Origin: a virus
Direction: 5' to 3' (one strand)
Length of the DNA stretch: 64,000 nucleotides
Virus record (IMG/VR): IMGVR_UViG_3300041809_000571
Coordinates: 179,841 to 243,840 of that record
Below are positions 12,338 through 57,725 of this stretch, piece after piece (position 1 is the first letter of the stretch; each line of letters opens with the position of its first letter). Made by a program: the position numbers and the translations under genes. Under the pieces are notes generated by a model, which searched no databases, was not told the origin of the DNA, and saw nothing but the letters and a program-made list of their open reading frames with translations.

Positions 12338-12422
12338 ATATCCTCCACTGTACTACACTGAATTTGACTACACTAGGGGCATAATAGCCCCACAATAGAG
12401 GGTGTGATAGTTGTGATTTTGA

Positions 12423-13085
12423 TTATGCTAAGGCGTGAAACACGCCTCGGTCACCACTCCAATTGGCGGGTTTGTATTTAATGCTGACCATATGGGCATC
12501 GTTGAAACCAGCGAACTTTAGCCAAGATTCAACGCATGGGGGATTTGGTCCCCAAAGGCATGTGGGGTCACCGTAAGGCTTGTTTTTATCATAGAAACTG
12601 CATATGGGTTCTTCCTTGAAAATCCAGTCCAAATGGGTTTCCAAGATGAGCTTTCCCTTGCAGACGGAGTGAAGCTTCTGGAGGGCAAGAAGGGGGTTTT
12701 GAAAGTGGTGGAGCGCCCCAAGGCAAAGAACGAAGTCATACTTCCCAATAAGGTCCGGGTCCAAGTCATGAACATCAAGTTTTATCCCCACCACCTTGGA
12801 ATTTAACACCCGTGTGGCGAGGTCAAATCCCCGGCGTCCGGTGTCAAAGCACCACGTATCCACGGCAGTCACCGCAGAGGCCCCCCGGCGTTCGCACAGG
12901 AAGCTCCACCAGCCATCCCATGCACCTACATCCAGTACGCTCTTGCCGGTCAAATCCTCGGGAAGGTGCAGGCGCTTGAGTTTCTCCTCGCTGTCGGTGG
13001 TACCGGGGGTGGTGACCCCGTCGCCAAGGTCAATCCTGTGCCACCATTTGATAGTCTTTATTTTGTCAAGAGTTTCTTGGTCCAT
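12423..13085 (-). CDS. Class I SAM-dependent methyltransferase (220 aa)
   Basis: Motif I 'VLDVGAWDGWWS', 'TAVD', 'YDFVLCLGALHH'. Confidence 0.65.
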   Translation of the reverse strand: MDQETLDKIKTIKWWHRIDLGDGVTTPGTTDSEEKLKRLHLPEDLTGKSVLDVGAWDGWWSFLCERRGASAVTAVDTWCFDTGRRGFDLATRVLNSKVVGIKLDVHDLDPDLIGKYDFVLCLGALHHFQNPLLALQKLHSVCKGKLILETHLDWIFKEEPICSFYDKNKPYGDPTCLWGPNPPCVESWLKFAGFNDAHMVSIKYKPANWSGDRGVFHALA

Positions 13086-13086
13086 A

Positions 13087-14247
13087 TTATGACCAGAGGT
13101 CCTTAACCGCCTGAATGAGTTGGCTTACCCATCCGGGTTCTTCCACTTCCGGGACAGGCTCGGGAGCCGGGATGACCGGCTCCTCTGGCTCCTCATCGTA
13201 GAGGTAGTTCTTCCACAGACGAAGACCCTTGTGGTTGTGCTCGTTGAGAGCTTCCTTACCATCAAGCCACGCCCGTGGGTCGTCCAGAAGGTGAAGGCCC
13301 ACGTTGGCGATATTCTCCGGGCTATCGGGGTTTGCCTTCCACTGTTTGGGTGCCCATCGCACAGCGTCAGAGACCACGGTGGGAACTCCCATGACCACAC
13401 CATCCGCCGTCACGATATTGAACGACTCGGTGAATGACGGCTGGAACAGGAGGTCCATGGTTCTCACGAGTTCGGAGAACTTTTCCCACGGCATCCACCT
13501 GTGCTTGACTACATCGAATCCGGGGATAGCCTGAGACATCTGTTCAATCGTGTTAACAATGGCCTTGCCCTCAGACTCCCCTCCCTGATTGATATGGAAA
13601 GAGACGGGCACCTGCAAGCGGTTTTGAATGAGCAGACCGGCAGCGACCGCCGAGGGGATGTTCTTCTCCGGGCGGAGTGCGCCGAATGCACCAAGACGTA
13701 GAGGTTGAGACGAGAACCGTACCTTGCCCTCGTGATGGCCCCGGCTGGAATACAAGTCAGGCAGCAGGAAGGTATTGACCCCATAGGCTTCACTGAACCA
13801 CTGGGTGAATGAACGAGAGTTCCCGGATACCGAAAGGTTGGGAAGGTCGTTCATCAAGTCGGCGTACTGGCGGAAGTTTCCTATTCCCCGGTAATCGCCA
13901 TATAAAGCCGCCACGTTACAATGTGACTTTACGGTGAACTCCATGTCGGGGAAGTAGTTGACCAGTGCCTTCAAATCCAGCGGCGTAATCCACGGTGCCA
14001 TGATGACGCAGTGGGTCAACGGACCTTTGCCTTCTTTCGCTCGCTTGCCATTGTGAAAGAGAATGGACTGGAGAAGCTCAACGTTATCTTTAACGCCAAC
14101 AACGTAAGTCCTGATTCCATGTTGGTTAAGTTCTTCTGCTGTTTTCTTTGCTGCTACGGCGAGACCTACCGAACTGTATCCTGTCCAAAAGGCGAAGTCC
14201 TTGTAGCATAGGGCAACCGCCACGTCTTTCCTGCACCCCTCACTCAT
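13087..14247 (-). CDS. Glycosyltransferase, GT-B fold (GT1/GT4-like; 386 aa)
   Basis: 'FGALRPEKN' plus 'ESFNIVTADGVVMGVPTVVSD' (E-x7-E-like motif). Confidence 0.6.
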   Translation of the reverse strand: MSEGCRKDVAVALCYKDFAFWTGYSSVGLAVAAKKTAEELNQHGIRTYVVGVKDNVELLQSILFHNGKRAKEGKGPLTHCVIMAPWITPLDLKALVNYFPDMEFTVKSHCNVAALYGDYRGIGNFRQYADLMNDLPNLSVSGNSRSFTQWFSEAYGVNTFLLPDLYSSRGHHEGKVRFSSQPLRLGAFGALRPEKNIPSAVAAGLLIQNRLQVPVSFHINQGGESEGKAIVNTIEQMSQAIPGFDVVKHRWMPWEKFSELVRTMDLLFQPSFTESFNIVTADGVVMGVPTVVSDAVRWAPKQWKANPDSPENIANVGLHLLDDPRAWLDGKEALNEHNHKGLRLWKNYLYDEEPEEPVIPAPEPVPEVEEPGWVSQLIQAVKDLWS

Positions 14248-14300
14248 TGTTTCCTCCCCGAAATTTTTGCTTTCACTATGAGGATGATAGTCGAACTTCC

Positions 14301-14885
14301 CTACGCAGTTGCGTCTGCGGTGGGGGTGGACTCCTCTGCAACCGATTCAGGAGCGGAGGGACCGGTCGCATCCGGGAAGGCGGTGCCTTGGGGCACTACA
14401 TCAGCCGGATTTTCGTCAGCGGTGAACGTAGAAGGCCCCGCAGGCCCGCTAGGAGGCGCTCCCGGCGCAGGGGCAGGCGGTGGGGCGGGTTGAGCCTGCA
14501 TCTTGGCGAGTTCGGCCTCTGTAATGGCATCGTAGGAGAAAACGTAAGATTCGGCTTTCTCAGCGTCGGTGATTCCTTCCGGCAGTTCCCACTTGATGTT
14601 GATTGCCATGCCCTTGAACTGTTCGAGTTCCACCTTGCTGAGTTCCACCCTGCCCCCGGCGTGCTTGAGCAGTGTGGCGGCGAGAGCGGATAGCCTCTTG
14701 GCGGAGCCTTGTGCTCCCTGATAGGCGGTCGCCAGTTTGCCAACGATTTCATCCGGGTTGTTGTAAATCTTCTGGAGTTCTTCTTCGAGTTGTCTGCAAT
14801 ACTTTTGCAGGGAACTGAGGAACTGCTTTTTGACGGTGGACTTTTTCAATACAAAGGGCTTAGGCTGTAGGGATACTTTACTCAC
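14301..14885 (-). CDS. hypothetical protein with a Pro/Ala-rich C-terminus (194 aa)
   Basis: ORF in operon context. Confidence 0.45.
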   Translation of the reverse strand: MSKVSLQPKPFVLKKSTVKKQFLSSLQKYCRQLEEELQKIYNNPDEIVGKLATAYQGAQGSAKRLSALAATLLKHAGGRVELSKVELEQFKGMAINIKWELPEGITDAEKAESYVFSYDAITEAELAKMQAQPAPPPAPAPGAPPSGPAGPSTFTADENPADVVPQGTAFPDATGPSAPESVAEESTPTADATA

Positions 14886-14925
14886 ACTTCCTCCTATGGG
14901 GATTTTTTCTGTACGAAAACCGAGA

Positions 14926-15303
14926 CTACAAGAGTTCCTTGGACTTCATGAACCGGACGGCCTCGATTGCCTTCTTCACCATGATTTCGTAATCATCGGG
15001 GCCGCAGTCAAACAGGGCGGAACCCCAAAGCTCGGCGAAAGCCGCCTCGGCGGTCCGATACTTGTAATTGGGATTGAGGGTGGTAAGCCGGGTCTGAGGG
15101 TTAGTGATGAACTTGTCCTCAGTGTTGACCGGTCCTTCCGAGGGTATTTCGACCCCCTCAATTCTGGCATCAAACATGGGGTCCCAGTAGATTTCAATGC
15201 CGGGGGATTCCAAGCTCACGTAGATGCCGGGAGCGGTCTTCTTGTAGCTCGCCCCAGCCGCTTTGAAGTACCGACCAACCGCAATGCTATCAAATTTGCT
15301 CAT
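14926..15303 (-). CDS. hypothetical protein (125 aa)
   Basis: ORF with TGGTATTTATACAGTGGAGGTTGT-ATG upstream. Confidence 0.5.
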   Translation of the reverse strand: MSKFDSIAVGRYFKAAGASYKKTAPGIYVSLESPGIEIYWDPMFDARIEGVEIPSEGPVNTEDKFITNPQTRLTTLNPNYKYRTAEAAFAELWGSALFDCGPDDYEIMVKKAIEAVRFMKSKELL

Positions 15304-15354
15304 ACAACCTCCACTGTATAAATACCAAAAAATAACGGAAATAATCGGTCACAT

Positions 15355-15382
15355 TGAGGTATACTGTAGGTGGAGGGAAAAC
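15355..15382 (+). promoter_or_regulatory. Promoter-like motif family A (extended -10 TGnTATACT fused to SD): TGAGGTATACTGTAGGTGGAGGGAAAAC-ATG
   Basis: Near-identical copies at 16068-16094 (+), 57657-57690 (-), 51482-51509 (-) and 50664-50697 (-). Degenerate copies at 15304-15333 (-) and 12338-12365 (-). Every copy ends 0-10 nt before a start codon. Confidence 0.5.
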
Positions 15383-15676
15383 ATGCCAGCTTTGACCACC
15401 TGCCCCATTTGCAACTTCACCGGCTCCCACGGATTTACCGACACCGTAGGGGGCGTCATGATGTTCTACCACGGTGACGCCTTTACCCACCGGTTTTGGG
15501 TAGGCAATCAAAACACCTACCTCAGCCTCTCCGCCGCCTTCGAGGCCGAAGTCGCCCCCCGTAACCAAGATACTGAGGACAAACGGATTTGGTGCGAGGC
15601 ATGGCGTGCCCGGATTGCCGGGAAAGAGCGCCGGGCGAAGCGCCTCTTCAACAAGTGGCAGAATTACAACCGATAG
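15383..15676 (+). CDS. hypothetical Zn-ribbon protein (98 aa; CPICNF)
   Basis: The start is refined to the ATG directly after TGAGGTATACTGTAGGTGGAGGGAAAAC. Confidence 0.55.
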   Translation: MPALTTCPICNFTGSHGFTDTVGGVMMFYHGDAFTHRFWVGNQNTYLSLSAAFEAEVAPRNQDTEDKRIWCEAWRARIAGKERRAKRLFNKWQNYNR

Positions 15677-15707
15677 GTAAAAATTACCGGTTACACGGAG
15701 GAACTCT

Positions 15708-16028
15708 ATGAAACTTCTGCAAAACTCAGCGGGAAACTTTCTTAACATGACGCCTCAAGAGGCGAGGTTGCTTGCAGAACAGCTTTTAAGGGCAGCAAAC
15801 AGCCGTGAGGGATTCGTCAAGACCATCGTCATCCGTGAGGACCGCAAAGACTCTACCTTACGTGGTAATGACCCTAGCTTCTATGGCGAGCTTGACACCC
15901 TCCATGTGGGCGTCAGCCCATCATGGCTCGATATCCACCCAAGCCTCGAACCCCTGTTAAAGCCACGTGAACCTCTTGCTCAAAGCAACATCGACCGTAA
16001 TGCGGTCAATGTCGGATTGAAGGGCTAG
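15708..16028 (+). CDS. hypothetical protein (106 aa)
   Basis: ORF in the plus-strand cluster. Confidence 0.45.
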   Translation: MKLLQNSAGNFLNMTPQEARLLAEQLLRAANSREGFVKTIVIREDRKDSTLRGNDPSFYGELDTLHVGVSPSWLDIHPSLEPLLKPREPLAQSNIDRNAVNVGLKG

Positions 16029-16094
16029 GGATACAGGCAAGAAAAACCTTCAAAAACCGGATACACGGTGGTATACTGTAAGTGGAGGGAAACT

Positions 16095-16562
16095 ATGCAG
16101 GGAATGATTACAGACCCGAAACTTGCCAAGGAATTCATTCTCGCCGGGAACGCCACAGTGACCTTCGTCAGCAAGAAGAGCGGCAACCGCTTCACCTACA
16201 AAATCAAAATGGCTCCCCGGAAAGAGGGCGACAACCCCAACAGCACCCTCTACTTTGTCCACCTTCTGGTTGGGCAGGACAACGAAAACGACTACTCCTA
16301 CATCGGTGTGCTCACCCGATACGTCTGCCCGGCAGGCAGTGAATCCCTCAACTTCCGAATGACCAAAGCCTCCAAGGTGAGTTCCGACGCTCCCTCGGTG
16401 ATGGCGATGGAATGGGTTATCTCTTTCTTGGGTCAGGGGGATATGCCCTTCATGACCGAGATTTGGCACATGGGCCGCTGTGGACGTTGCGGGCGTGACC
16501 TAACGGTCCCCGAGTCCATCGCCAGCGGCATCGGCCCGGTCTGCGCTTCGAGGGGAGAATGA
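16095..16562 (+). CDS. hypothetical protein with a C-terminal CGRCGR Zn ribbon (155 aa)
   Basis: Start refined to the ATG after GGTATACTGTAAGTGGAGGGAAACT. Confidence 0.55.
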   Translation: MQGMITDPKLAKEFILAGNATVTFVSKKSGNRFTYKIKMAPRKEGDNPNSTLYFVHLLVGQDNENDYSYIGVLTRYVCPAGSESLNFRMTKASKVSSDAPSVMAMEWVISFLGQGDMPFMTEIWHMGRCGRCGRDLTVPESIASGIGPVCASRGE

Positions 16563-16762
16563 AATTTTACATCTGCGAAGCCGAACCCCACCAAGGTCCC
16601 TGCGTCTTTTCCGAACAGGGTTGGAAAAGGCTGCCATCGAATTCATCCACAGGCATGTCTAGGTGCATCCACCACGGCGAGATAATCGACATCATCAAGG
16701 ACTTTCCCGACCGGGAGACGGCCCGCAAGTGGGCGAAGGGAGAAAGCGTCAATGGCTGGTAA
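16559..16762 (+). CDS. hypothetical protein (67 aa)
   Basis: The ATG overlaps the upstream stop (TGAAATG). Confidence 0.4.
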   Translation: MKFYICEAEPHQGPCVFSEQGWKRLPSNSSTGMSRCIHHGEIIDIIKDFPDRETARKWAKGESVNGW

Positions 16763-16967
16763 CACCGGTAAGATGACGAGGGGAGCAATCGAGCGCCGGG
16801 GGCCGAGGATGTGCCTTGGCTATATGGTGGGAGACGAGGGGTATTTCATCTTCCGGGAAGGCCAACTGCCCCTGAAAAACAACTACTACCGGCTTCGAGT
16901 GCTGGCAAGGTCCTACAGCAAGTCCTACCTTATGCGGGTCGGACGGGCACAGAGCATCCTGCCCTAA
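16752..16967 (+). CDS. hypothetical protein (71 aa)
   Basis: ORF in the plus-strand cluster. Confidence 0.35.
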   Translation: MAGNTGKMTRGAIERRGPRMCLGYMVGDEGYFIFREGQLPLKNNYYRLRVLARSYSKSYLMRVGRAQSILP

Positions 16968-17527
16968 TCCTTGGCCTGCGTCAAATTCTTGTTTTCGGTC
17001 GGGTCACTATCATCCAACAATTGGTCCAAAGACTTTGCCGGTCCATCCGCCGCAAAGGCTACCCCGGATTCTTCTGCCGCCACACCCGCCAATTCCCGGT
17101 CTACCGCCGCCCCGGCTGCGGCAAGCTGCTCCTGATTCCGCTTGATGGTCTTAACAATGGGTGGACGCTTCGGCCCGGCGAGGGCGGCAACCTTCTGTAC
17201 GGCCTCACCATCAAAGTTCTCAGTCGGAGCCATGGGTACACCAGCAACTAGCCTTTGGGGCGCTGCTGGAGCCTTCTGCGCCTCCGCAACGGCCTCTTCC
17301 AGACGCTCCGCCATCATGAACTCCAGCATGGAGCGCTGCGGGTCCTTGGCGTGCTTCTTGCAGATGTCGTAGACCTTGCTGGCTTCCACCAAATCCTCTT
17401 CGCCCTCTTTGACGGGTATGGGGGCGAACGGCTCCTTGCAGAGCTTGTCTTTGAAGTCGGCGATGACCCCGCATCCGCATGATAACCTTACGCTAATCCT
17501 ATGAATACTAAGGCTTTCTACTTTCAT
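16964..17527 (-). CDS. hypothetical protein (187 aa)
   Basis: ORF. Confidence 0.45.
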   Translation of the reverse strand: MKVESLSIHRISVRLSCGCGVIADFKDKLCKEPFAPIPVKEGEEDLVEASKVYDICKKHAKDPQRSMLEFMMAERLEEAVAEAQKAPAAPQRLVAGVPMAPTENFDGEAVQKVAALAGPKRPPIVKTIKRNQEQLAAAGAAVDRELAGVAAEESGVAFAADGPAKSLDQLLDDSDPTENKNLTQAKD

Positions 17528-17528
17528 C

Positions 17529-17732
17529 TTAAACTCCCTTCATGAGTGCCTTGAAACACAGTTCGGAGGCATCGGTCAGCACCTTCTTGGCGATTTCGAG
17601 CTTATCCTCGTAGAGGATACCACAAGACATGTCGTTGTAAAACTCCAACGAGAGGAGGGGTGCATTATCATCCTCCGGGTCACTGGCGATGAATTTCTTC
17701 TGATTGAGAGTGCCGTAAATCTCTAATTTCAT
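17529..17732 (-). CDS. hypothetical small protein (67 aa), translationally coupled (ATGA overlap) to the upstream membrane protein gene
   Basis: ...CAC TTA TGA overlapping ATG AAA TTA at 17729-17734. Confidence 0.45.
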   Translation of the reverse strand: MKLEIYGTLNQKKFIASDPEDDNAPLLSLEFYNDMSCGILYEDKLEIAKKVLTDASELCFKALMKGV

Positions 17733-18613
17733 AAGTGTTTCCCCAGTTCGTAACCGGCTAATAGCGCACCGGCAATCTCCGCACCCTTCTTGGTGCCTGC
17801 CCAAATCTTCTGCCACTTCGTCTTGACGGCGACCGCCTTGTATTTCTTCACGGTGTCTTGACACTGCCCGTTGGCGAGCTTAAGCTTGTCGTCATCGGCC
17901 CTTAAAGCGTTAAAGTCCGTGGTCAGGCTGGCATTGGTCTTGGTCAGACCGTCAATAGTTTGGTTCTTAGTCGTTATCTGCTGGTTAAGGTTGTCCACAT
18001 TGCTTGCCAGCCGGTCCCGGTCCAATTTCGTAGCAGTGAATTGCTGCACGGTGGTGATGGGGAAGGTGAGCAACTGTTCTTTCGTCACCGGGTCGGCGGA
18101 TACATTAAGCGTAAGCGGCAGCGGGGTGTTTTTGTAAGAATCCTTCAAGTCCCCAAACACTTCCTGCGCTGACTTGCCCGGCTGGAGAACGGCGGTGATG
18201 GACTGGTCAACCTTGGTGTTAAGGTCTTTGAGTTGCTGGATAAGGCCAGCCTCCTTGGCGTTGGCGGCGGCAATCTGTGTGGCCCACTGCGCCCGGTCAG
18301 CGGCATGTTCCGTCGCCTCTTTCTGATACTGGCTGTCGGCCTGCTTCCACGACTGCTCATACTGAACCATGAGCTTCTCAGATGCCTCTGCACGGTCCAT
18401 GAGTTTGTTATAGCCCCTCAAACCAAACCATCCCCCGATTCCGGCGCAGGTGAGAACCAACAACAGAATTCCAACAACCACGTAGTTAAGGGTAATGTGG
18501 TGATTAGCCAGCTTGTTTAGTAGGTCCTGCGGGACCGTTACGTGCGTTGCGGATGTAGCCACAGTGACGGAGCTTGCATCCGGCTGTGGTGGGCTTAAAG
18601 GTGTGTTTGCCAT
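17729..18613 (-). CDS. Membrane-anchored coiled-coil protein (294 aa); possible spanin or lysis-associated protein
   Basis: Single N-terminal TM helix 'ITLNYVVVGILLLVLTCAGIGGWFGL', then long heptad-like segments rich in Q/K/A/L. Confidence 0.4.
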   Translation of the reverse strand: MANTPLSPPQPDASSVTVATSATHVTVPQDLLNKLANHHITLNYVVVGILLLVLTCAGIGGWFGLRGYNKLMDRAEASEKLMVQYEQSWKQADSQYQKEATEHAADRAQWATQIAAANAKEAGLIQQLKDLNTKVDQSITAVLQPGKSAQEVFGDLKDSYKNTPLPLTLNVSADPVTKEQLLTFPITTVQQFTATKLDRDRLASNVDNLNQQITTKNQTIDGLTKTNASLTTDFNALRADDDKLKLANGQCQDTVKKYKAVAVKTKWQKIWAGTKKGAEIAGALLAGYELGKHL

Positions 18614-18688
18614 AGTTTTCTCCTCTATTTTAGAGGGGAGAAAGATGTAAAACTCAAAAACCCCGCCCTAATATTCAATTTTTACTGT

Positions 18689-19873
18689 TCAATCCTCCTT
18701 GCTACTACCCAACGGAATTGGTAAGGACGGGTCCACCTTTGCTATCTGTTTAGCGGAGAACTTGTAGGTATCGCCGTACTTCTTCACCACTTCCCGGTAG
18801 TTTTTGAAGGCTGGATTTTCCTTTTTCACCCAGTGCTTCATGACGTTATCCTTCACTATTGTGTAAATAATGAAGTAGTTCTTAGGGGATTTGACCTCCC
18901 CTTTCTTAATGGCCTCCACAATTTTGGCAGCGATAGTGGAGGGAACGTGGATACCATCCACGAGAATGAGTTTGCGCACAAGGGCTGTGACCGTCTTCTG
19001 CCGGGACTTCTTGAGCGGCTCATGCTGGTCTTTCCGCTTGGCGGTGGGAACGAGGGGAGACTCTCCCAACTTTGTGTCTTCCCGGATGAGGCTTAAAGCC
19101 TCCTTGATATCCTTCGCCCGGCTGGCGGCGGCGAACTTCCTGCGGACAGTGGAGTCCTTGATTTCCCCAATCTCTTTTTCGGTAGTCGCTTCCTTGAGCG
19201 CCTCGGCCTCCTCGGCGTCAAACTCAGCGTAAAGCTCGGGGAGGGCCTTCTCACCTTCCTTTTCATCGTCTTCTTTAAGGGTGGAAACAAGGGGACAGTA
19301 GTAGTAAGTTCGTATGTCCTTGGGAACATAGGAGAGGTTGAGGAGGTTCCAAACAGGAGTCTCCAGCATGATACTCTTGGTCTTCAAGGTTATACGAATG
19401 ACCGCTCGCCCGGCTCCAATAGCCGTTACCGTCCCACAGAAATCTCGGGTCTCGCCGTTAAGAACCCGGACAAAGGACCCCACCTCTACCCCGGAGGAGT
19501 GTTCCCTGAACTGCTTCTCGGCAGGGGACATAAGCTTTTGAACTTCCGTGTCGGAGACCCTTATTACCTTATTTGGCCGGTTTGAATCTCCCTCAGTGAC
19601 CAGAGACACCACACCCGTGATGGTCTTTAGCCGCAATAGCCCTTGGAAACTATCACTGCGGACAAAGAGGTACGCAGCCGCCGTGAGGTCAAAAACGTCA
19701 AGGTCCCGGTGACCTACCGGTATGAACAATTCCACAGCATCTTCTCGAAAAATCTGAGGTATTTGTTTGCCTATCCGGCGTAGGGTGGGTTCGATGGTCT
19801 TCTCGCTGCGAACTTCCAGCATACACCACTCCTTGCCTTTCAGCTTGGAGCAGTCTCTATATGTTAGTAACAT
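18689..19873 (-). CDS. KOW-domain protein, a NusG/Spt5-like candidate transcription elongation or antitermination factor (394 aa)
   Basis: KOW motif 'VGSFVRVLNGETRDFCGTVTAIG'. Confidence 0.4.
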   Translation of the reverse strand: MLLTYRDCSKLKGKEWCMLEVRSEKTIEPTLRRIGKQIPQIFREDAVELFIPVGHRDLDVFDLTAAAYLFVRSDSFQGLLRLKTITGVVSLVTEGDSNRPNKVIRVSDTEVQKLMSPAEKQFREHSSGVEVGSFVRVLNGETRDFCGTVTAIGAGRAVIRITLKTKSIMLETPVWNLLNLSYVPKDIRTYYYCPLVSTLKEDDEKEGEKALPELYAEFDAEEAEALKEATTEKEIGEIKDSTVRRKFAAASRAKDIKEALSLIREDTKLGESPLVPTAKRKDQHEPLKKSRQKTVTALVRKLILVDGIHVPSTIAAKIVEAIKKGEVKSPKNYFIIYTIVKDNVMKHWVKKENPAFKNYREVVKKYGDTYKFSAKQIAKVDPSLPIPLGSSKED

Positions 19874-19896
19874 GGTCCTCCATTAGATAAATACTG

Positions 19897-21024
19897 TCAG
19901 ATTACCTCCCCTTTCAAAATTGCCTGACTGGAAGAGGCATTTCCGACTACATTCCGGGCGGGCAAAGTCCGAGTGACCGTCTTGCTGACCACCGGTTTTG
20001 ACACTCTCGCCGCCCCCATAAGCTCGTACACAAAGAGGGGGAGGGCATCAGCGGGAATGAACGGGGTCGCTAACCATTTTAGAAATATAGCGGAAGTCTC
20101 CTTAATGTTGGGGAGCGCCTCGGCAATACGAGCAAGCTCCGAGGCTGGCTCCGACCATGGGGACTTGGCATAAAGGGAAAAGGTAGTTTCAATGACCTTG
20201 GTTGGAAGCGCTACCCGTGCTCCATCGTCGGCGAGCTTGACGGCAGCGGCTTGGTCCCCGTGGCTTATAGCCAGCAGGATGCTGTAGCATACGCTTTCGA
20301 GGGGATTATCCAGAACCTTGTCAACGTTCTCCCTGTTAACCTTGCCCAGTGCGGCGGCGAATCCCAGCCAACGGACCGCTTCCCTTATGATGCCTTTGGA
20401 GTGTTTGGCGATGTCCTTGATAGCATCAAGCTCATAATCAATGCCGTTACGGGAGGCTATGCTTGCCATCAGGCCCGTAATCACGTCGTCTGTGGCACGA
20501 TAGAAAGTCAGCGGCAAACAGCGGGACTGGATGGTCTTGGGGATGCGGTTGTCATCGGTGGTAACGAACATGAAAATGCTGTCAGTGTCGGGACGCTCCA
20601 GTGGCTTGAGGAAAACATCCCAAGCTTCCGAAGAAAGCCGATGGGCTTCATCAATCACAGCGACCCGGCGCTTCCCAGTGATGGGCGGCTGCGCCATGCA
20701 GTCCATTAAATTGCGGGCATCTTGCACGCCGGGATGCTCAGCAGCATCCGTTTCAAAGAAGTCGGCGTCATGCTCAATTGTCTCTTGGTCGATGAAGCGA
20801 CAGGAGGGGCACGTTCCACAACCCAGTGGGTCACTCCCGGCGCACATGAGCGCACGGGAAAGAAGGTAGGCCACAGAGGTTTTCCCAAGGCCCCATGGAC
20901 CTTTGAGGATGAAACCACGAGGAAGAAACTTTCCCGTAGTCAGAAGACTCTTGAGTAAGGATACGACCCTGTCTTGTCCCACGACTTCGCTCCAAGCCGT
21001 GGGACGAAAGGAGATTAGATTCAT
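19897..21024 (-). CDS. dnaX: Clamp loader ATPase, DNA polymerase III gamma/tau (DnaX)-like
   Basis: 'VVGQDRVV...GPWGLGKTSVAYLLSRALMC...GCGTCPSCRFI...VAVIDEAHRLS...SRC': AAA+ Walker A and B, Zn module and sensor motifs. Confidence 0.75.
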   Translation of the reverse strand: MNLISFRPTAWSEVVGQDRVVSLLKSLLTTGKFLPRGFILKGPWGLGKTSVAYLLSRALMCAGSDPLGCGTCPSCRFIDQETIEHDADFFETDAAEHPGVQDARNLMDCMAQPPITGKRRVAVIDEAHRLSSEAWDVFLKPLERPDTDSIFMFVTTDDNRIPKTIQSRCLPLTFYRATDDVITGLMASIASRNGIDYELDAIKDIAKHSKGIIREAVRWLGFAAALGKVNRENVDKVLDNPLESVCYSILLAISHGDQAAAVKLADDGARVALPTKVIETTFSLYAKSPWSEPASELARIAEALPNIKETSAIFLKWLATPFIPADALPLFVYELMGAARVSKPVVSKTVTRTLPARNVVGNASSSQAILKGEVI

Positions 21025-21042
21025 AGCGTTACGTTACCTCTC

Positions 21043-21519: not shown

Positions 21520-21546
21520 GACTGGCCTCCTTTGTATAATACTGCG

Positions 21547-24499: not shown

Positions 24500-24515
24500 G
24501 CCCCTCTCCTGTTCT

Positions 24516-29210: not shown

Positions 29211-29237
29211 ACTCCCTCCGTTGAATAATACTCAGAT

Positions 29238-34346: not shown

Positions 34347-34389
34347 AGCAACCTCCCTCTATCTATAATACCATTGGAAAGTTGTTTTT

Positions 34390-42804: not shown

Positions 42805-42835
42805 GTAATCCTCCTCACTATAATACTGATTCCGG
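42805..42835 (-). promoter_or_regulatory. Promoter-like motif family B: CAGTATTATA(G) followed by an SD, or directly by ATG (leaderless-like)
   Basis: The plus-strand 'ATAATACTG' or a close variant recurs upstream of minus-strand starts at 21520-21546, 24500-24530, 27275-27300, 29211-29240, 34347-34378, 48885-48925, 49701-49727, 52562-52592, 58431-58447 and 19874-19905. Confidence 0.45.
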
Positions 42836-48511: not shown

Positions 48512-48530
48512 GTCGTAATCCTCCTAAAGG

Positions 48531-48884: not shown

Positions 48885-48926
48885 GACTTCCTTTCCACGA
48901 GATATAATACTCGATATTTTGAAAAT

Positions 48927-49700: not shown

Positions 49701-49730
49701 ACCAGATAATACTGAATCTCAGGATGAGGA

Positions 49731-50072
49731 TTATCTTCCGGTCAATCCCGCAGTAACGAGCCGACGCATGGTCAGCACCCGCAGCACAACTTCGGCATTG
49801 AGTTGCTGGAGCGTCTCAAACAACTCCTTCTCGTATACCGAGCAATCATCCACGGGCTTGCCAAACCCTAACTCGGTTTCTATGGGAGCCAAGTTGTGGG
49901 CCTTGGAGGTAGGAATGCGGTCAAGGGCATTCTGCGCCACTCGAAGTAACTCACCGTAGTGTCTAAGCCGGTCGGCGTTCACTGGCTTCCCAATGCCGAC
50001 GACCTTAACCTCGGGAACTTTGATGCTCCCGTATGAATCGAATTCCACCTTTTTCAAATTAACGTCAATCAT
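49731..50072 (-). CDS. hypothetical protein (113 aa)
   Basis: ORF. Confidence 0.45.
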   Translation of the reverse strand: MIDVNLKKVEFDSYGSIKVPEVKVVGIGKPVNADRLRHYGELLRVAQNALDRIPTSKAHNLAPIETELGFGKPVDDCSVYEKELFETLQQLNAEVVLRVLTMRRLVTAGLTGR

Positions 50073-50422
50073 TTCAGCCCCTTTCGAGTATACTCGTTGT
50101 CAATCAGGGTGAAGGCGGCGGTCAGTTCCTTGAACTTCTCTTCCGCCTCGACCTTGGTCATGTTGTTGAGGATGCAGCGGTCAGGATGGCAAGCCATCGA
50201 CAGACGGCGGAAGGTGCTCTTGACAACCTTCCAAGGACTTCCCTCGGGAACGCCAAGCACCGCCCACGGGCCGTACTGCTTGCCCACAAACACTTCCTCG
50301 GCCTCTTCCTGCGACATCCGGTGGGCAAACGCCGCCCGCCACTGCGCCGGGGAACCGTAGCCCTCGGTCTCGGGGTCGTAGGTCTTGTAGCCGTCCAGAA
50401 AGCCTTTCTTGGCTTTAGGCAT
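50069..50422 (-). CDS. J-domain (DnaJ-like) protein, re-annotated to start at MPKAKKG
   Basis: 'YGPWAVLGVPEGSPWKVVKSTFRRLSMACHPDR...EEKFKELTAAFTLI' with the HPD motif. The N-terminal 78 aa of the track ORF overlap another gene out of frame. Confidence 0.6.
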   Translation of the reverse strand: MPKAKKGFLDGYKTYDPETEGYGSPAQWRAAFAHRMSQEEAEEVFVGKQYGPWAVLGVPEGSPWKVVKSTFRRLSMACHPDRCILNNMTKVEAEEKFKELTAAFTLIDNEYTRKGLK

Positions 50423-50663
50423 GAAGTTTTGCCTCGAAGGGAATTTCGTTGCCGGGGATGCCGAGTTCCTTGAGATGGTGACAACGTCTCCACCGCTTCC
50501 ATCCGGGGCAGGAGCAACCCCAATGGCGTTTGTCCTTGTTCTGTGCGATGGTATAGCAGCGGTCGGAGCTTGAGGAATGAATCTCGAAGCGGTTGCCCCA
50601 TTGGGCGTTATCAGGTAGCCGTAGGGCATCAGATGGAATGTAAAGGGTAATTGCATTTGCCAT
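50415..50663 (-). CDS. SWIM-type zinc-finger small protein (82 aa, MANAITLY...)
   Basis: 'CSCPGWKRWRRCHH' (C-x-C-xn-C-x-H). Starts right after CACGTGGTATACTGAAAGTGGAGGGAAAC. Confidence 0.5.
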   Translation of the reverse strand: MANAITLYIPSDALRLPDNAQWGNRFEIHSSSSDRCYTIAQNKDKRHWGCSCPGWKRWRRCHHLKELGIPGNEIPFEAKLHA

Positions 50664-50697
50664 GTTTCCCTCCACTTTCAGTATACCACGTGACCGG

Positions 50698-50883: not shown

Positions 50884-50906
50884 ATTGTCCCCTTGCTTAA
50901 ATTGCC

Positions 50907-51053
50907 CTACTTGACCCGTGGGTCAACCGGGAACACGGCGATGGCCTCGGTGTGGGCGTCGGCAGCGGAGTATTCCTCTATCTCCACCAAGTGCTTGAAG
51001 TAATCCTCATAGGTGAAAATGTGGCAGCCACACTCGCTGCAAAACTTGTCCAT
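50907..51053 (-). CDS. hypothetical Zn-ribbon peptide (48 aa, MDKFCSECGCHIF...)
   Basis: Below the track threshold; SD AGGAGGG 4 nt upstream. Confidence 0.35.
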   Translation of the reverse strand: MDKFCSECGCHIFTYEDYFKHLVEIEEYSAADAHTEAIAVFPVDPRVK

Positions 51054-51061
51054 GTGCCCTC

Positions 51062-51481
51062 CTACGCTTCCTCGTCCTTGGTGAAACGAGGGTCGTTGAT
51101 GTCGAAAACGAAAACCCGAGGCCGCTCCCCGGCGAACTGCCAGAAGGTGGGGTCGATGATTTTGCCCTCGAACTCAACCCACGAGTGGCAGTGCTTGCCT
51201 TCGGTAGCGGCGTGCTCGTCGCAGCCAATCTCGCCAATGACGGCACTCAGGTCGCCCGAGAACCAGCCACGAACCCGCAGGGACCAATCTCCCCCCTGAT
51301 GGACGGAGCCGGTGCCGGTCAGCATCTCGGAGAGAGCGGTAGCGGTGGTTTCGCACTGTCCCGCAAAGACCTCACCATTGCTCATCTTGGAAGTAAAGTC
51401 CCGACCGTTCCAGCCAAATTTCTGGATGTGGCGGCGGATTTCAGTCAGGGTGGGAATCGTTTGGTTGGCTTTGCGCATCAT
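51062..51481 (-). CDS. hypothetical protein (139 aa)
   Basis: ORF; TTTAGTGGTATACTGTAAGTGGAG-ATGATG upstream. Confidence 0.5.
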   Translation of the reverse strand: MMRKANQTIPTLTEIRRHIQKFGWNGRDFTSKMSNGEVFAGQCETTATALSEMLTGTGSVHQGGDWSLRVRGWFSGDLSAVIGEIGCDEHAATEGKHCHSWVEFEGKIIDPTFWQFAGERPRVFVFDINDPRFTKDEEA

Positions 51482-51527
51482 CTCTCCACTTACAGTATAC
51501 CACTAAAATGGCCGTTTTAGGAGAAAT

Positions 51528-52405: not shown

Positions 52406-52408
52406 AGC

Positions 52409-52561: not shown

Positions 52562-52577
52562 GATATCTCCTCTACCT

Positions 52578-55425
52578 TTAATACTGTGATTTTTCTAGTT
52601 TTTTTCGAGCGATAAAGTCCCGGAGCCAGCCTTCGGCAATAGCCCTAATCTTGGGGCCGCTTGGACCATGGTGGGGATTGGTGTAGAAAGCGATGAACTT
52701 ATCCACGTCGTGGATATCCGCTCCTGTGGCATACTGGCGGGCTTCCTGAATCAAGAGGGTGTCGGTCATCTCAACTGCTCATCGTAGGATTTCTGCCAGT
52801 CTGAATGCAACCAGTAATTAAGCGCTCCACAGGCCGGGCAGACCGCCGTGGCATTGTCAGTCACAAAGGACACCTTTTCATCAAAGGTATGCTCGCACTC
52901 ACCACAGACGACGGTGTATTTCTTCCGGTGAGTGAAGGGATTCCACAACCCGTTGGCGAATAACCTCCTCGGCTTGACTCTCTTCATGTCAGTCTTTCAG
53001 ATAACCCCGGTTATCCCGCTCCGCTCCCACAAAGGTGTCGGCATACCGGGCGGTCTTGATAGCCTGTGCGGCAAGCTGGAAGAGTTCCTCCCGGATATGC
53101 TCGGCATCCCGCTTCTTGCGCTTGAGGCAAACAATGTCGAAGAACTCCTTGTTAAGCTCCTCGGCGAGCAGGCCATATGCCTGATGGATACTGGCGAGGG
53201 GGCCGTACTCCTTCTCGCTGTGGGTCAGAATCTTCTCGATACGCAGGATTTCAATATCCGTGAGGCGTACCTCGGGATTGTCCGGCAAGGTCTCACTCAA
53301 CTGTTTCGATTTTTTCATAAGCTCCTCTCAGCATCCACCGCCCACACCAAAAATAACGGTGTCGGCGATGGTAAGCCACTTCTTGGTAATCGGCTTGGAC
53401 ATATCCAAGGGAACAACCTGCCCCCGCCGTCTCCAAAACCTCTTGCCCGTGTAGGTGCGGAACACCAAGTTATGGGGGCAAGCTGCCGGTTCGCCCGGCG
53501 AATTGCTGCATACGTGGGGGGCTTGTCGTATATCATTGACACACACTCAGCGTCGATGCCCTTCTTTGCCCGTTGGAAAAGCCCTTCCATGTGTTCCTTG
53601 TACCTGCTCATAACACTCCCCTTGCAGCAAGGTGGGCACGCAGAAATTTCAAAGCGGCCATTATCGACTTGACCCGTTCGTTGTACCTACCCACGGAAAC
53701 GTAGCAGTAACCTCCACAGTATACGTCTACAACCCATTCTATGCCGCCTGTGAGGCCCTGAAAGCGCCAGTTGGGGATAAGCTTCGCACTTTCCCTCCAG
53801 CCCATCACCATAGGTATATCCACGGGAATAGTCTGCTCCAGAGCCATCTTGTAGGACAGCACTTCCTGCGGCTTCGGATACCTCGGGCGAGCCTTCCGCA
53901 TCAGTTCACGTACTCTTTCTTCATCGGCTCCCTCTGAGCCTTAGCCTGTACCGCCCGTGTATCTGCCGCTCCGCACACGTGACACCCCCCGGCGTTGACG
54001 AGATATGCCTTCGTCATGCAACCGGGGTCCGGGCACTCCTGCACAATCTGGTAGTTGCCGTCCACCACGCATCCACAGGGGTGTGTCTCCCATGGCAGGG
54101 GATGGTCAGTGTCAACACAATCGGTCATTTTTCCTTCGGACATGGTTTACCCTCTGGTATTCCAATACTGCGCACTTCGGATTCTCCAAGGACCATCATG
54201 ACGAATGTCTCCACGGCGGTGAGGTCCTCTATTCCCATTTCCGCAAACTTCAAGCGGGTTTTCATTTGGTTCTGGAGCCGCTTGAAGAAGTCATTGCTGA
54301 ACTCGAAGAAGGGGTTATGTGGGCGCATGTAGACCTCGGACCCCTCGTCAACGTTGAGGGTGAGGGCGGCATGGATGTAGGCGACCTTCTCCTGCGCTTT
54401 TTCTAGTGGAGTCTTTTCCTTCATACGCCTCCTTCGGTGCTGAGAGCCTCGTCCACATCGGTTGTGCGCATGGAAGCCGTCTCCAGAGCGGGGCAGTCCA
54501 ACTCCCCATACTTACACACCCCGACGTATTCCCCCATGTTACAGTGCGTCATGTGAACCCCGATTTCCGGTGGTACGACGGGGTCATCAACCGGGAACAT
54601 ATCCACCTGTTCCTTGGGCATGTCTTTCACGTCCACGACAGCGCCGGGCAACTGGCGGCTGATGGAGAGGAACTGTCCCCGGTCCACGATTTCCTTCCAC
54701 GTCAGGAAGAAGGACGACGGTTGGCGTTTCGGTCGGAAGGAAATCCCGTCCGGCCCTATCCATACCAGCCAACCATTGGGAAGCTCTCGGCGAATAGTGC
54801 GGGTCATCTTGATGGTTTTCATGGTTTAACTTCCTCCAGTACTGTGACGTTGACGGGCATCATCTTGCCTCTGCCCCGTTCCTCTTCGGCCTTCGCCCCG
54901 TAGGGAAAGCACATGTCCACTTGCAGCCTGCTCGGGAACACGAAATGAAAGCTGTTATCCTCGCTGTTCCACCAGCCCCAATAGGAGCCGGATGGACCAC
55001 CGATGTTCTGCCCGGCATTGGGGTCGGCATTTTCAGAAACTTCCACCTTGAAGATGGGATGCGGCTCACGGGAATCTTGGCACATCTTGACAGACTTGGG
55101 ATGATGAAAAAAATGGAAGAACATCTTCCCCTTTGTAGTGGAGTCAAACTCCGTGCAATACATGATGGTCTTGAGTTCCATGTTAAGTCCTACTCAGACG
55201 CCAGTTCTTCACCGGCTGCCCGTTTATAATGACCCAATCTCCCCCCAAGGGAAGCCGTTGAAGCTTGCTATCGCAGACGGCGCTCTTGCGCTCCCGTGAG
55301 AGCGCTAGGCACGTCCCTATACCCCTCGCTATCATGGCGGGGGTGACCATGCCGTCCGAGGTCTTTTTCCAGCGGCCCCGCTCGATATTGTCCGACGTGT
55401 TGCCGGTAACAAACGTCAGGGGCAT
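52578..55425 (-). other. Cassette of ~10 tightly coupled small genes: 52578-52769, 52766-52987, 52989-53318, 53315-53611, 53608-53901, 53901-54143, 54125-54424, 54421-54822, 54819-55181, 55183-55425. All are hypothetical; several are Cys-rich.
   Basis: Consecutive ORFs of 63-133 aa joined by 1-4 nt start/stop overlaps (ATGA/TGATG), as in an operon. Confidence 0.5.
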
Positions 55426-55528
55426 GACGAGCTTAAGTCCCCCCGGCGAGGGCCGGTACGGGCTTCCATGCTGTCCTTACCGACCTTCACCAGCCAGAGT
55501 TCACCGTCTACCACAATTTTTCGCATCA

Positions 55529-55840
55529 TCAACCTCGCTTTGCCATTAGGGCGATTTCTTTACGAAAACTTATCATGGCGACGGTTAAAGACGCCCCGGA
55601 AAGTATACTTTGCAACGCTGACTCCACCGCTTTCAAGACTTCTTGGGGTGTACAGCCAGCGCACCAAGGCCAAACCCGCTGGTTGTATGGTGTACATTCA
55701 GAAAGGTAACGGGATGTTACCCCGTTATCCACATCTGCCATCGCTCTCTTATAGGCTGAGAGAAGGCTGAACAACCCAAGAACGGTTGCCCCGGTGGTTG
55801 CCTTCTCTACCGCACGAATCAATTGCAGGTCGGTCGGCAT
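55529..55840 (-). CDS. hypothetical protein (start refined to MPTDLQ)
   Basis: ORF. Confidence 0.4.
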   Translation of the reverse strand: MPTDLQLIRAVEKATTGATVLGLFSLLSAYKRAMADVDNGVTSRYLSECTPYNQRVWPWCAGCTPQEVLKAVESALQSILSGASLTVAMISFRKEIALMAKRG

Positions 55841-55841
55841 T

Positions 55842-57656
55842 CTACCAATCCTCCTTGTAATCGCCGGGGAACAGGATGGACTTGCTCCACCACGGGGAGA
55901 ACATCTTGCCCGCTCTCTGAATAAATACTCCAAACTGAGCGTCGATGATGTAGTGCTCGGCCTTATCTTTGTTGTGGCGGACGGTACGTCCGGTCGCCTG
56001 CTGGAGTTTCAGGGCGGTCGTCCAGTTGTACCAGTCGCCGTCACGAGCCATGCGAGCCTTCACGTAGTCGGTCATGAACTCGTAGGGGACCTTGCACACG
56101 ATGCCGAAGCGCCCGAGGTCGTCTTTCAGGTCCAGTCCTTCGGTCATGCTCGGGCTGATGATGACGGTAGGTTCGTTCACCCGGCGCTTATGTTCTTCGA
56201 TGATAAGCTCACGGGTGCCCTTGGGGCTGTTCTCGTCGTGGGTCAGGATGCGGTCACCGAACCCCTGCCGGGTCAGATAGTCCACGATGTACTTGGTGAT
56301 GGCGAACGTGTGGGTATGGATAATCCCCTTGTCGTTGGCGTGCTTACGGAGAATCTTGGCGCACTCGGCAGCGATGAGCGGTTTCGCCGCTTCGATGGTC
56401 TTGCTGGACATATTCGCCACGGGCTTGTAGTAGATGGGACGATTTTCCAGCGGAAAGTCGGAGTCCATGGCGAGCGTCACGGCATCTTCCTTCTTGATGC
56501 CGAGGTTGCGCATGAAGGTGTCGAAGTCCAAAATCGTGGCGGACATCAGGATGACCATATCCGCCTTCGAGAAGAGCAATTTGTCGGCGAACAGGGTAGC
56601 CGTCAAGGGCTTAATGACCATCTTGGCGGGCTGCAAGGGCACGGGCGCTCCGCAGCGGTAGCACTTCTTTCCGGCGAACTTGAACTTGGTGCGGCACTCG
56701 GGGCACGCCTTGGCTTCGGACTCAGACCAAACCATCCAGTCGTTGAAGTTCTCGGACTTGAGGAACAGGTCCAAGGACTGGAGGAAGCGCTCCAGACCGC
56801 CCGCCTTCTTCTTCATTTTGGCGGCGTCCTTCATGAGCTTCTTGTCCCGGAGTTCTTCCGCCTTGCTGGTCAATTCCTGAATGGCGGCGGCGGCGGCGGG
56901 ACGGAAAGTCTCGTTCAGATAGTCCAGAGCCACGCCCCGACCGGCTGCATCCGCCTTGATGAAAGGCAGGGACATGAAGTCGATTCCGACTTCTTCGCAG
57001 CGCCACTTGGTGATTTCAATGTTCGCCAGACCGAGAATTTGCTGCTCGGCGTTATGAGCTTCATCCAGAATCAACATGGTGCGGTCTTTCAACTGACCGA
57101 CAAAGTTGGACTCGGAGAGGTAGTAAGCAAAATTGGTAGTTCCAAGGGGAGTCGCACAAAAAGCCTCTTTCGCCAGCTTGTAGCCGTGGCAACCGCCCTT
57201 TTCAGCGTGCTCGGGGTAGAAGAAGTCCGTCTCTTCGCAGGACATCAGTTCCCCGCCCTCTTCCTCGGGGAAGTGGTAGCCGCAGTTGTAGTTCGCCCGG
57301 CCCTTGAGTTCGGCAAGGCCGTTCTTCTCAAAGTCGCCCATCAACTGAGCCGTCAGGGATTTCTGTGGGGAGCAGTAGTAAGCTCCCGGCTCGAAGTTGC
57401 CAGCAACCCGCACCGTCTTAGCCCAAGAACCAGCCGCCACGCCGATACCGGATTTTCCGCCGCCCGTGGGGATTTCGAGGACGACGTACTTTTTGTGCTC
57501 ACGGTGAGCTTTCTCAATGGCTTGCAGGGCTTCTTCCTGCGCTACCCGGATGGAAGGGAAGGGGAAGTGTTCACGAATCTTGGGGGAGTCGTTCTCGGTG
57601 AAATTCATGACCGGGCGGTCAGCAATTTCGGTGATGATGGCGGGGGAATCTCCCAT
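55842..57656 (-). CDS. SF2 helicase of the DinG/XPD (Rad3) family with an Fe-S-like Cys cluster (604 aa)
   Basis: 'EIPTGGGKSG' (Walker A), four Cys between motifs I and II ('CGYHF...C...C...C'), 'MLILDEAHN' (DEAH), 'QATGRTVRH' (motif VI). Confidence 0.7.
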   Translation of the reverse strand: MGDSPAIITEIADRPVMNFTENDSPKIREHFPFPSIRVAQEEALQAIEKAHREHKKYVVLEIPTGGGKSGIGVAAGSWAKTVRVAGNFEPGAYYCSPQKSLTAQLMGDFEKNGLAELKGRANYNCGYHFPEEEGGELMSCEETDFFYPEHAEKGGCHGYKLAKEAFCATPLGTTNFAYYLSESNFVGQLKDRTMLILDEAHNAEQQILGLANIEITKWRCEEVGIDFMSLPFIKADAAGRGVALDYLNETFRPAAAAAIQELTSKAEELRDKKLMKDAAKMKKKAGGLERFLQSLDLFLKSENFNDWMVWSESEAKACPECRTKFKFAGKKCYRCGAPVPLQPAKMVIKPLTATLFADKLLFSKADMVILMSATILDFDTFMRNLGIKKEDAVTLAMDSDFPLENRPIYYKPVANMSSKTIEAAKPLIAAECAKILRKHANDKGIIHTHTFAITKYIVDYLTRQGFGDRILTHDENSPKGTRELIIEEHKRRVNEPTVIISPSMTEGLDLKDDLGRFGIVCKVPYEFMTDYVKARMARDGDWYNWTTALKLQQATGRTVRHNKDKAEHYIIDAQFGVFIQRAGKMFSPWWSKSILFPGDYKEDW

Positions 57657-57725
57657 AGGTATTTTCTCCTCACTTACAGTATACCACGGGAAATGGGTTT
57701 TGAAAGGATATTTTTCTATACTTTC

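Follow-up and report, generated by a model that had tools for sequence, protein, structure and literature searches.

Promoter-like boxes at fixed spacing to start codons and ribosome-binding sites in the replication region of a phage distantly related to Tunturi_5

Why do about twenty genes in one part of a large uncultivated soil phage's genome carry the same short boxes directly upstream of their start codons, and what might read them? The question is raised by a stretch of 64,000 nucleotides from an IMG/VR virus record (IMGVR_UViG_3300041809_000571, positions 179,841 to 243,840), the whole of which we call the window. It is phage DNA of 54% GC in which almost every listed gene lies on the minus strand. 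A sequence-only reading of the window had proposed two conserved motif families, A and B, immediately before start codons. Both were borne out by shuffled controls and by a hexamer test, and the interpretation offered with them appears largely right in outline and is partly supported. We consider it probable that the boxes are promoters, built as compact promoter–ribosome-binding-site (RBS) cassettes for this region of replication and recombination genes and small open reading frames (ORFs). The closest cultured relative by protein is Tunturi_5 (PP885688.1), a 308.7-kb jumbo phage of the acidobacterium Tunturiibacter psychrotolerans. Uncultivated relatives are found in IMG/VR and JGI metagenomes: the loci L001, L002, L004, and L005 share 90-95% nucleotide identity with the window, L133 is a mosaic relative, and L134-L146, L131, L003, and L006 are progressively more distant.

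In an unbiased test of the 45 nt preceding 72 gene starts (-45 to -1), the top hexamers were AGTATT, GTATTA, and TATTAT (p = 1.5e-11 to 6e-10). The Shine–Dalgarno (SD) hexamers GGAGGA and AGGAGG ranked below these, and TGGTAT and TATACT came after them. The sequence-only reading had named motif enrichment no higher than in a generic SD context as evidence that would count against it; the box hexamers instead outrank those of the SD. The joint pattern GTAT[AT][AC]T matched 14 of 74 sense upstream segments against 0.6 expected (maximum 3) when each segment was shuffled separately, which preserves local A/T richness, and only 2 antisense segments matched. Boxes were always co-oriented with their gene. 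Intergenic DNA does have a higher A/T content, and generic TANNNT was not enriched in the upstream segments (37 sense against 31 expected, 40 antisense), as would be expected if A/T-rich intergenic DNA, chance, and a generic SD context had produced the pattern between them. That explanation is excluded by the statistics: it accounts neither for the sense-strand excess of the specific boxes nor for their rank above the SD hexamers, no shuffle reached the observed counts, and orthologous sites keep their boxes though the flanks diverge.

Family A (TGGTATACTGTAAGTGGAGG, up to three mismatches) gave five matches (15357+, 16069+, 50669-, 51483-, and 57667-) against none in 100 dinucleotide-preserving shuffles, and its core, GTATACTGNRRGTG, gave five against 0.01 expected. 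Two degenerate copies (15304-15327 and 12338-12360) raise the total to seven, in agreement with the earlier claim of at least seven copies on both strands that end 0-10 nt before a start. The whole cassette ends 0 nt before the ATG, and the distance counted from GGAGG is 4-10 nt in all copies. In all five strict copies, GTATAC is followed after 7 nt by GGAG. Nine independent copies from the window and its relatives yield the consensus GtG-GTATACTG-TAAGT-GGAGGG-Aaa-(1-8 nt)-ATG, which follows an A/T-rich tract from about -45 to -28 and then about 12 variable bases. TGG-TATACT is present in four of the five strict window copies, G at -14 in all nine independent copies, and TATACT, with A at -11 and T at -7, is invariant across the strict copies. 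The TGnTATACT string looks like a textbook extended -10 element, and with GGAGG 7 nt beyond GTATAC, the proposal that Family A fuses such an element to an SD fits the sequence well.

Two of the strict copies are on the plus strand: AGGTATACTGTAGGTGGAGGGAAAAC (15357-15382) precedes the ATG at 15383 of a 97-aa ORF, and TGGTATACTGTAAGTGGAGGGAAACT (16069-16094) precedes the ATG at 16095 of a DUF6011 protein. The latter is the only Family A copy with a passable -35 (TTCAAA, a 17-nt spacer, and TATACT; 16049-16077). On the minus strand, TGGTATACTGTAAGTGGAGAGATG (51479-51502) stands before the ATG at 51478 of a 138-aa protein, TGGTATACTGTAAGTGAGGAGAAAATACCT (57657-57686) before the ATG at 57656 of the helicase, and TGGTATACTGAAAGTGGAGGGAAAC (50664-50688) before the ATG at 50663 of an 82-aa SWIM-like protein, which is followed by a DnaJ-domain gene. 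This last cassette is conserved in L133 and L136. It had been assigned, as the copy at 50669, to a 195-aa ORF from a mechanically made list (50069-50656, minus strand), an assignment that did not hold. The 195-aa ORF is actually two genes in different frames, as the orthologues in L133 and L136 confirm: 50663-50415 (minus strand), whose SWIM-like Cys/His motif was named by eye only, and 50422-50069 (minus strand), a 117-aa DnaJ-domain protein. The degenerate copies, also on the minus strand, are TGGTATTTATACAGTGGAGGTTGT (15304-15327, ATG at 15303) and CAGTGTAGTACAGTGGAGGATAT (12338-12360, ATG at 12337), the weakest member. One box per strand, back-to-back, thus occupies the divergent 79-nt intergenic region 15304-15382.

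Family B (CAGTATTATA, at most one mismatch) gave seven matches, on the minus strand only, against 1.06 expected. For its core, AGTATTA, 11 occurrences compare with 2.4 expected, and nine of the 11 lie in sense orientation within 25 nt upstream of real starts. Including the variants at 19874-19898, 24500-24524, 29211-29233, and 34347-34373 brings the total to about 12, in line with the at least ten copies claimed earlier. The sites have the form (C/G)AG-TATTA(T/A)-N. A TG at -15/-14 is absent from Family B, in which CAG or GAG precedes TATTAT and -14 is A, with the exception of a hybrid at 34364-34373. No conserved -35 element was found in the aligned Family B sites, and base 6 after the hexamer is a purine at every one of them.

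The spacing of GTATTA-type boxes is rigid and bimodal. In one arrangement, GTATTA is separated by 6 nt from an ATG that has no SD; in the other, it is separated by about 6 nt from GGAGG, with the ATG 4-10 nt beyond, so that GGAGG begins at about +6 and the second ATG mode falls at +15 to +20. This second mode matches the earlier observation that an SD follows some Family B copies. The first arrangement is found at three window genes (starts 11158, 49700, and 58430), 13 genes of Tunturi_5, two of L133, and two of L136. At the three window starts, the first T of TATTAT is at -11, which places the ATG 5 nt after TATTAT rather than the roughly 9 nt given by the sequence-only reading, and neither GGAG nor GAGG occurs between box and ATG. 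An in-frame stop lies 21 nt upstream of the starts at 11158 and 49700; at 58430 the frame is open upstream, but the L136 orthologue begins at the same place with GGTATTATCccccATG. The N terminus of the protein encoded at 48927-49700 aligns with that of Tunturi_5 gp186 from Met1 onward. If the usual distance from a -10 element to the start of transcription is assumed, +1 is predicted to fall on the opening base of the AUG or SD. We infer that the genes starting at 11158, 49700, and 58430 are candidates for leaderless mRNAs; the earlier suggestion of leaderless copies is supported by the lack of an SD, the -11 geometry, and conservation across lineages, with predicted mRNA 5′ ends, and its spacing figure had to be corrected.

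All of the assigned Family B sites are on the minus strand. The leaderless type comprises CAGTATTATTGGAC (11159-11172, ATG at 11158, 265 aa), CAGTATTATCTGGT (49701-49714, ATG at 49700, 257 aa), and CAGTATTATCTCCT (58431-58444, ATG at 58430, 234 aa). The first and third of these lie outside the range 12338-57690 to which the motifs had originally been assigned. An SD follows the box in CAGTATTATAcaaAGGAGGccagtc (21520-21544, ATG at 21519, 158 aa, with the clamp loader as the next gene), in CAGTATTATAgtGAGGAGGattac (42805-42828, ATG at 42804, at the head of the primase/DNA polymerase A gene string), in CAGTATTAAAggtaGAGGAGatatc (52562-52586, ATG at 52561 of a 50-aa Cys-rich ORF), and in GAGTATTATTcaacGGAGGgagt (29211-29233, ATG at 29210, 96 aa, with a clamp-like processivity factor as the next gene). 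The SD is weak in GAGTATTATAtctcgtGGAAAGGAAGtc (48885-48912, ATG at 48884). Variant boxes are GAGTATTAAAgaacAGGAGAGGggc, with an SD (24500-24524, ATG at 24499), and GACAGTATTTATCTAATGGAGGACC (19874-19898, ATG at 19873 of the Tunturi_5 gp25 orthologue); the close relative L004 carries the canonical CAGTATTATActgtGGAGGacc in place of the latter. The GIY-YIG homing endonuclease gene is headed by the A/B hybrid TGGTATTATAgataGAGGGAGGttgct (34347-34373, ATG at 34346), which reads TGGTATTATA at 34364-34373. Families A and B share the GTAT core and, with hybrids such as this one, form a continuum of which they are the extremes, not two discrete classes. Of the original division into two families, the enrichment of both stood and the clean separation did not.

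A few other sites resemble the boxes. The site GAGTATACTcgaaaggggctgaa (50073-50095, minus strand, ATG at 50072) is doubtful because its box falls within the 3′-terminal part of the preceding DnaJ-domain gene, where it codes for three conserved residues, E-Y-T; the L136 counterpart (8640, minus strand, read by eye as the reverse complement) has TATACC, not TATACT. Two look-alikes were rejected: GTATACTGTGGAGG at 53718-53724, which encodes the residues V-Y-C-G-G conserved at the protein level, and 34623-34629, which is internal to the portal gene. An orphan B-like box, AGTATTAGACATC followed by ATG, occurs on the plus strand at 7914-7926 in the divergent region 7882-8048. Read as AGTATTAG + ACATC + ATG, it is Tunturi_5-like, and its ATG opens a mere 10-codon ORF. 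This box may be a promoter with a leader of about 120 nt for the exonuclease gene at 8049.

Conservation across relatives separates the box from its surroundings. The gene at 48927-49700 has orthologues in eight other lineages, with 38-77% amino acid identity and loci of 49-64% GC. In their upstream sequences nothing is invariant but GTATT and the TG of ATG/GTG; the flanks are unalignable, and the N4 spacer between GTATT and the start (N5 in one lineage) is freely variable. Likewise, (C)AGTATTAT is found upstream of the orthologues of 48531-48884 in L131, L133, L134, L136, and L138. Helicase orthologues always have a box directly upstream, the type of which differs: Family A with an SD in the window, Family B with an SD in L136, leaderless Family B in L133, and in Tunturi_5 that phage's own GGTATTAGC, also leaderless. 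(The reverse complement of GGTATTAGC is GCTAATACC, which we take to be a conserved stretch of 16S rRNA, at about 163-171 in E. coli, and probably a coincidence.) A further block, AAGTATA(G/T)AAA (window about 57705-57716, minus strand; L133 about 1185-1200; L136 about 1180-1195), precedes the helicase -10 box by about 38 nt. Kept in three lineages despite their differing -10 types, it could be a second promoter or a UP-like element.

The window's own motifs are not those of Tunturi_5, where 200 kb contain six occurrences of GTAT[AT][AC]T, none of them upstream of a gene. That phage instead has two box families of its own with spacing identical to the window's. One is GGGTATTAGC-N4-ATG (13 genes) or GGGTATTAGC followed by GGAGG; the other has two blocks, AAAGTCATCTTTGG-N13-GTAGGTTGA, followed by N4-ATG or by an SD. 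Recurrence of the same architecture with other box sequences in so diverged a phage argues strongly that the architecture is functional. Boxes of the GGGTATTAGC class have a further upstream block, TTTTTT-N5-(R)ATAATC, 21 nt away. The GGGTATTAGC box often forms part of the loop of a GC-rich hairpin in which the SD supplies the 3′ arm, with a U-run following in some cases (z down to -4 relative to shuffles; for example, L007 45380-45437, L009 12720-12760 on the minus strand, and many more). These hairpins could be terminators or could mask the SD in read-through transcripts. A corresponding anti-SD hairpin model for the window, with the promoter in the loop and the SD masked in read-through RNA, was rejected: mean z was 0.02, and significance was confined to some Tunturi_5 sites. 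Database scans were of little help in placing the motifs. The pattern TCAGTATTATCNNNNATG proved too unspecific for IMG/VR, where it matched at least 120 stretches on many different contigs, and the Family A core gave 33 matches over unrelated phyla in bacterial genomes, about chance by our estimate, and no clue to the host.

On the reading that we prefer, each cassette would hold a sigma-70-family -10 element preceded by G at -13. In Family A, TGG-TATACT would act as an extended -10 together with the A/T-rich tract at about -45 to -28; in Family B, (C/G)AG-TATTAT would act as a -10 alone, with neither TG nor -35. RNA polymerase would start 6 nt (B) or 7 nt (A) past the hexamer. A +1 on the A of AUG would give leaderless mRNAs for the genes at 11158, 49700, and 58430, and a +1 on the first purine of GGAGG would give the remaining genes a 5′-terminal SD and a 5′ UTR of about 11-20 nt. 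Family A would most likely be read by host RNA polymerase with sigma-A, or through a -35-independent recognition like that of Thermus phage P23-45. Family B, which has neither TG nor -35, may be read by sigma-A with a phage cofactor or by a phage sigma, either being as plausible here as host sigma-A unaided. What has been observed directly is the motifs with their enrichment, orientation, spacing, and conservation at orthologues; that the boxes act as promoters, where exactly +1 falls, and which enzyme reads them are inferred from these. That the families might mark temporal classes, as the sequence-only reading suggested, finds only a loose trend in the genes served: Family A mostly stands before the helicase and before small ORFans, which encode DUF6011, SWIM-like, DnaJ-domain, and unknown proteins, and Family B mostly before replication genes, namely the polymerase string, the clamp loader, and the clamp, and before the neighbors of an SSB-like gene.

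Several points weigh against promoter–RBS cassettes of this kind. An SD at the extreme 5′ end of a message is unusual. Judged by E. coli standards, Family B would be too weak to act alone, and a generic -35/-10 scan of the window returned sites at shuffle level, with a single Family A copy passing. The conservation of Family A extends through the discriminator and SD (GTAAGTGGAGGG), beyond what a -10 needs, and could reflect recent copying or a role at the RNA level. The counterpart box in Tunturi_5, TATTAG, lacks the normally invariant T at -7. Finally, the window proteins submitted to Pfam and PHROGs included no match to an RNA polymerase or sigma factor.

Some of these points bear on who reads the boxes. 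A variant of the promoter reading, which differs in the enzyme alone, holds that they are promoters for a phage-directed polymerase, either host core enzyme with a phage sigma or host holoenzyme remodeled by a phage cofactor, especially for Family B and the Tunturi_5 GGGTATTAGC class. In T4, a lone TATAAATA is recognized by gp55, and Family B likewise stands without TG or a conserved -35. The GTATTA core is common to phages of the clade whose loci range from 49 to 64% GC, the Tunturi_5 box has a final G where sigma-70 requires T(-7), and the absence of the Family A core from bacterial genomes above chance points the same way. Tunturi_5 itself has genes for gp211, an ECF-type sigma (Sigma70_r2 + r4_2), and for gp3, which is also annotated as a sigma factor. 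No RNA polymerase is annotated in its first 200 kb. Yet the 64-kb window contains no sigma gene and no homologue of gp3 or gp211, its hexamers retain the sigma-70 hallmarks A(-11) and T(-7), and the putative host phylum is itself predicted to use TANNNT boxes beside start codons. We regard a phage-directed enzyme as a possibility of distinctly lower standing. That the boxes act instead at the RNA level within longer transcripts, as a ribosome-loading signal, a translational-regulator site, or a processing site that makes short 5′ ends, seems unlikely. A constant distance to the SD or AUG would be equally expected of an RNA start-site signal, the would-be transcribed GTAAGTGGAGGG is conserved in Family A, and in Tunturi_5 the upstream ATAATC could be the -10, which would put GGGTATTAGC in the loop of a 5′ UTR hairpin with the SD as its 3′ arm. 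But the boxes fit -10 geometry and carry a TG extension, they occur in both orientations within divergent intergenic regions of just 79 nt, and no Rfam match was obtained. Pairing between upstream flank and SD was insignificant in the window, as noted above, and terminator stem-loops of the kind found in promoter early stem-loop (PeSL) elements were not found in the 60 nt upstream of 15 sites (mean z = -0.13 relative to shuffles). Moreover, about 50 other window genes have an SD without a box, so the box is not a general RBS component.

Family A also bears the marks of gene shuffling. The segment 15386-16094, which holds two genes and the second Family A copy, is absent from L001, L002, L004, and L005. 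The single cassette of these four relatives joins the sequence upstream of copy 1 to the gene downstream of copy 2, and the junction, ...AAAACATG-ATGCAGGG, lies precisely at the start codon. Positions 50927-51484 are missing from L133, where homology breaks off at the 3′ edge of the Family A copy at 51483. The indel evidence consists of these two cases only. Since the copies are near-identical repeats heading gene cassettes, they may in a secondary role mark or mediate insertions and deletions between close relatives. That they are mainly recombination or mobility repeats, whether mobile-cassette junctions or homing-endonuclease sites conserved by recent copying, is a far weaker candidate for their function, though it draws on both of these indels and on the presence of a free-standing endonuclease with sequence at other sites in the relatives. 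The Family A core is kept in L135-L137/L144 (64% GC), L003, and L006 before unrelated genes, in sense orientation and 3-10 nt from their starts; orthologous genes retain Family B boxes across deep divergence; and the junction in the four relatives is not a simple crossover within the repeat. In T4-type PeSLs, recombination is a by-product of promoter function (PMC2839356). The endonuclease in question is the GIY-YIG gene at 33528-34346 (minus strand), which has its own cassette, TGGTATTATA...GGGAGG...ATG, at 34347-34373. It appears mobile, since sequence homologous to it occurs elsewhere in the genomes of relatives (L133 5783-6152 and 10775-11139; L004 5037-5339).

The genes around the boxes identify the window as a replication and recombination region, in a phage whose kinship with the Acidobacteriota jumbo phage Tunturi_5 is distant. 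They include a family A DNA polymerase (37650-41810; 46% amino acid identity to that of Tunturi_5), a clamp loader (19897-21024), a UvsX-like recombinase (44689-46029), and the helicase (55842-57656, minus strand), as well as a portal protein (34390-36951) and a collagen-like tail fiber (58448-60742). The window is syntenic with gp4-gp27 and gp180-gp193 of Tunturi_5. A megablast of positions 14000-24000 against phage GenBank records found no near-identical match. Rfam and tRNA scans of the window gave no match, and terminator-like sites in it were not above chance. Two very large genes lie at its edges, both on the minus strand: 493-6639 encodes a 2048-aa protein whose sole match is an N-terminal GNAT acetyltransferase, and 60779-63970 encodes a 1063-aa fusion of TPR, methyltransferase, and glycosyltransferase domains. 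The 416 nt on the 3′ side of the helicase (55426-55841) contain no convincing gene and carry a palindrome, AAAGTATACTTT, at 55600-55611. The helicase orthologue of L131 (8714-11494) has an intein-like segment, seen by eye only (CFCLD...VVHNS, about 390 aa).

As biology, the boxes are the expected kind of feature for a large lytic phage, and their design, phage promoter families combined with leaderless or minimal-leader genes, is known; what is new is its occurrence in a little-studied phage group. The literature that we consulted holds no published transcription signals for Acidobacteriota phages, and in the Tunturi_5 paper the words promoter, sigma, and RNA polymerase do not appear. The most interesting details are the rigid rule that places +1 on the first base of the SD or AUG and the interconversion of the two forms at orthologous genes. 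Tentatively, and with more doubt than attaches to the cassettes themselves, these details might be generalized to a Tunturi_5-like clade, probably infecting Acidobacteriota. In such a clade, a clade-specific -10-type box with a GTATTA core would fix +1 on the AUG or the first base of GGAGG, perhaps with a phage sigma or cofactor. Orthologues would flip between forms, cassettes would double as portable shuffling junctions, and the SD-masking hairpins of Tunturi_5 would restrict translation to promoter-proximal transcripts. In practice, the boxes can serve as a promoter/RBS grammar for phages of this group: with them, gene starts are corrected (11158, 19873, 50663, and GTG-initiated leaderless orthologues), operon heads are predicted, and candidate parts become available for genetic tools in Acidobacteriota. 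The cultured Tunturi_5 system is a directly testable case of leaderless or minimal-leader expression during infection.

How do these cassettes compare with known systems? The late promoters of T4 consist of TATAAATA read by gp55, and the T4 genes e and soc are hairpin-masked late genes. Family B resembles such promoters as a lone -10-type box with no -35, and some Tunturi_5 boxes resemble the e/soc arrangement in lying in a hairpin loop that masks the SD in read-through transcripts only. The box sequence differs, however, no gp55 or gp33 homologue was found, and hairpins in the window are insignificant. Like the PeSLs of T4-type phages, the window cassettes run from an upstream stop codon through an A/T-rich tract, a strong sigma-70-like promoter, and an SD to a start codon (PMC2839356, PMC4122927), and they cluster among small ORFan genes and at indel borders between close relatives. 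They differ in having no consensus -35, and neither the hosts nor the phage lineage is related to T4. The stem-loop terminator that defines PeSLs appears at some Tunturi_5 sites only and is absent from the window, so we do not claim PeSL membership.

The nearest parallel to Family A is found in the middle and late promoters of Thermus phage P23-45, which share a TG at -15/-14, a near-consensus TATACT, the lack of a usable -35, and repetition before many genes (PMC3950348). In P23-45, promoters of this extended -10 class allow phage genes to escape when the phage shuts off -35-dependent transcription of the host (PMC3950348). No gp39-like factor was identified in the window phage. Family A in addition has the A/T-rich upstream tract and conservation through the discriminator into the SD, and Family B is without the TG. 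For the leaderless copies, the closest known counterpart is bacterial. TANNNT about 10-12 nt upstream of a start is a signature of leaderless genes in Actinobacteria, Deinococcus-Thermus, and Acidobacteria, the last being the putative host phylum, and leaderless genes were predicted in three of three Acidobacteria genomes, at 9.7-19.4% of genes (PMC3160421). In Deinococcus, a -10 box adjoining the ORF has been shown experimentally to be the promoter of leaderless genes (PMC12340547). The same arrangement, with the first T 11 nt before ATG/GTG and no SD, is found at three genes of the window, 13 of Tunturi_5, and several of the relatives. Leaderless middle and late mRNAs are reportedly also made by phiYS40 of Thermus. 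The window box differs from the bacterial signature in being far more specific, (C/G)AGTATTAT, and in being used also, at the same distance, before GGAGG, with orthologous genes switching between the two forms.

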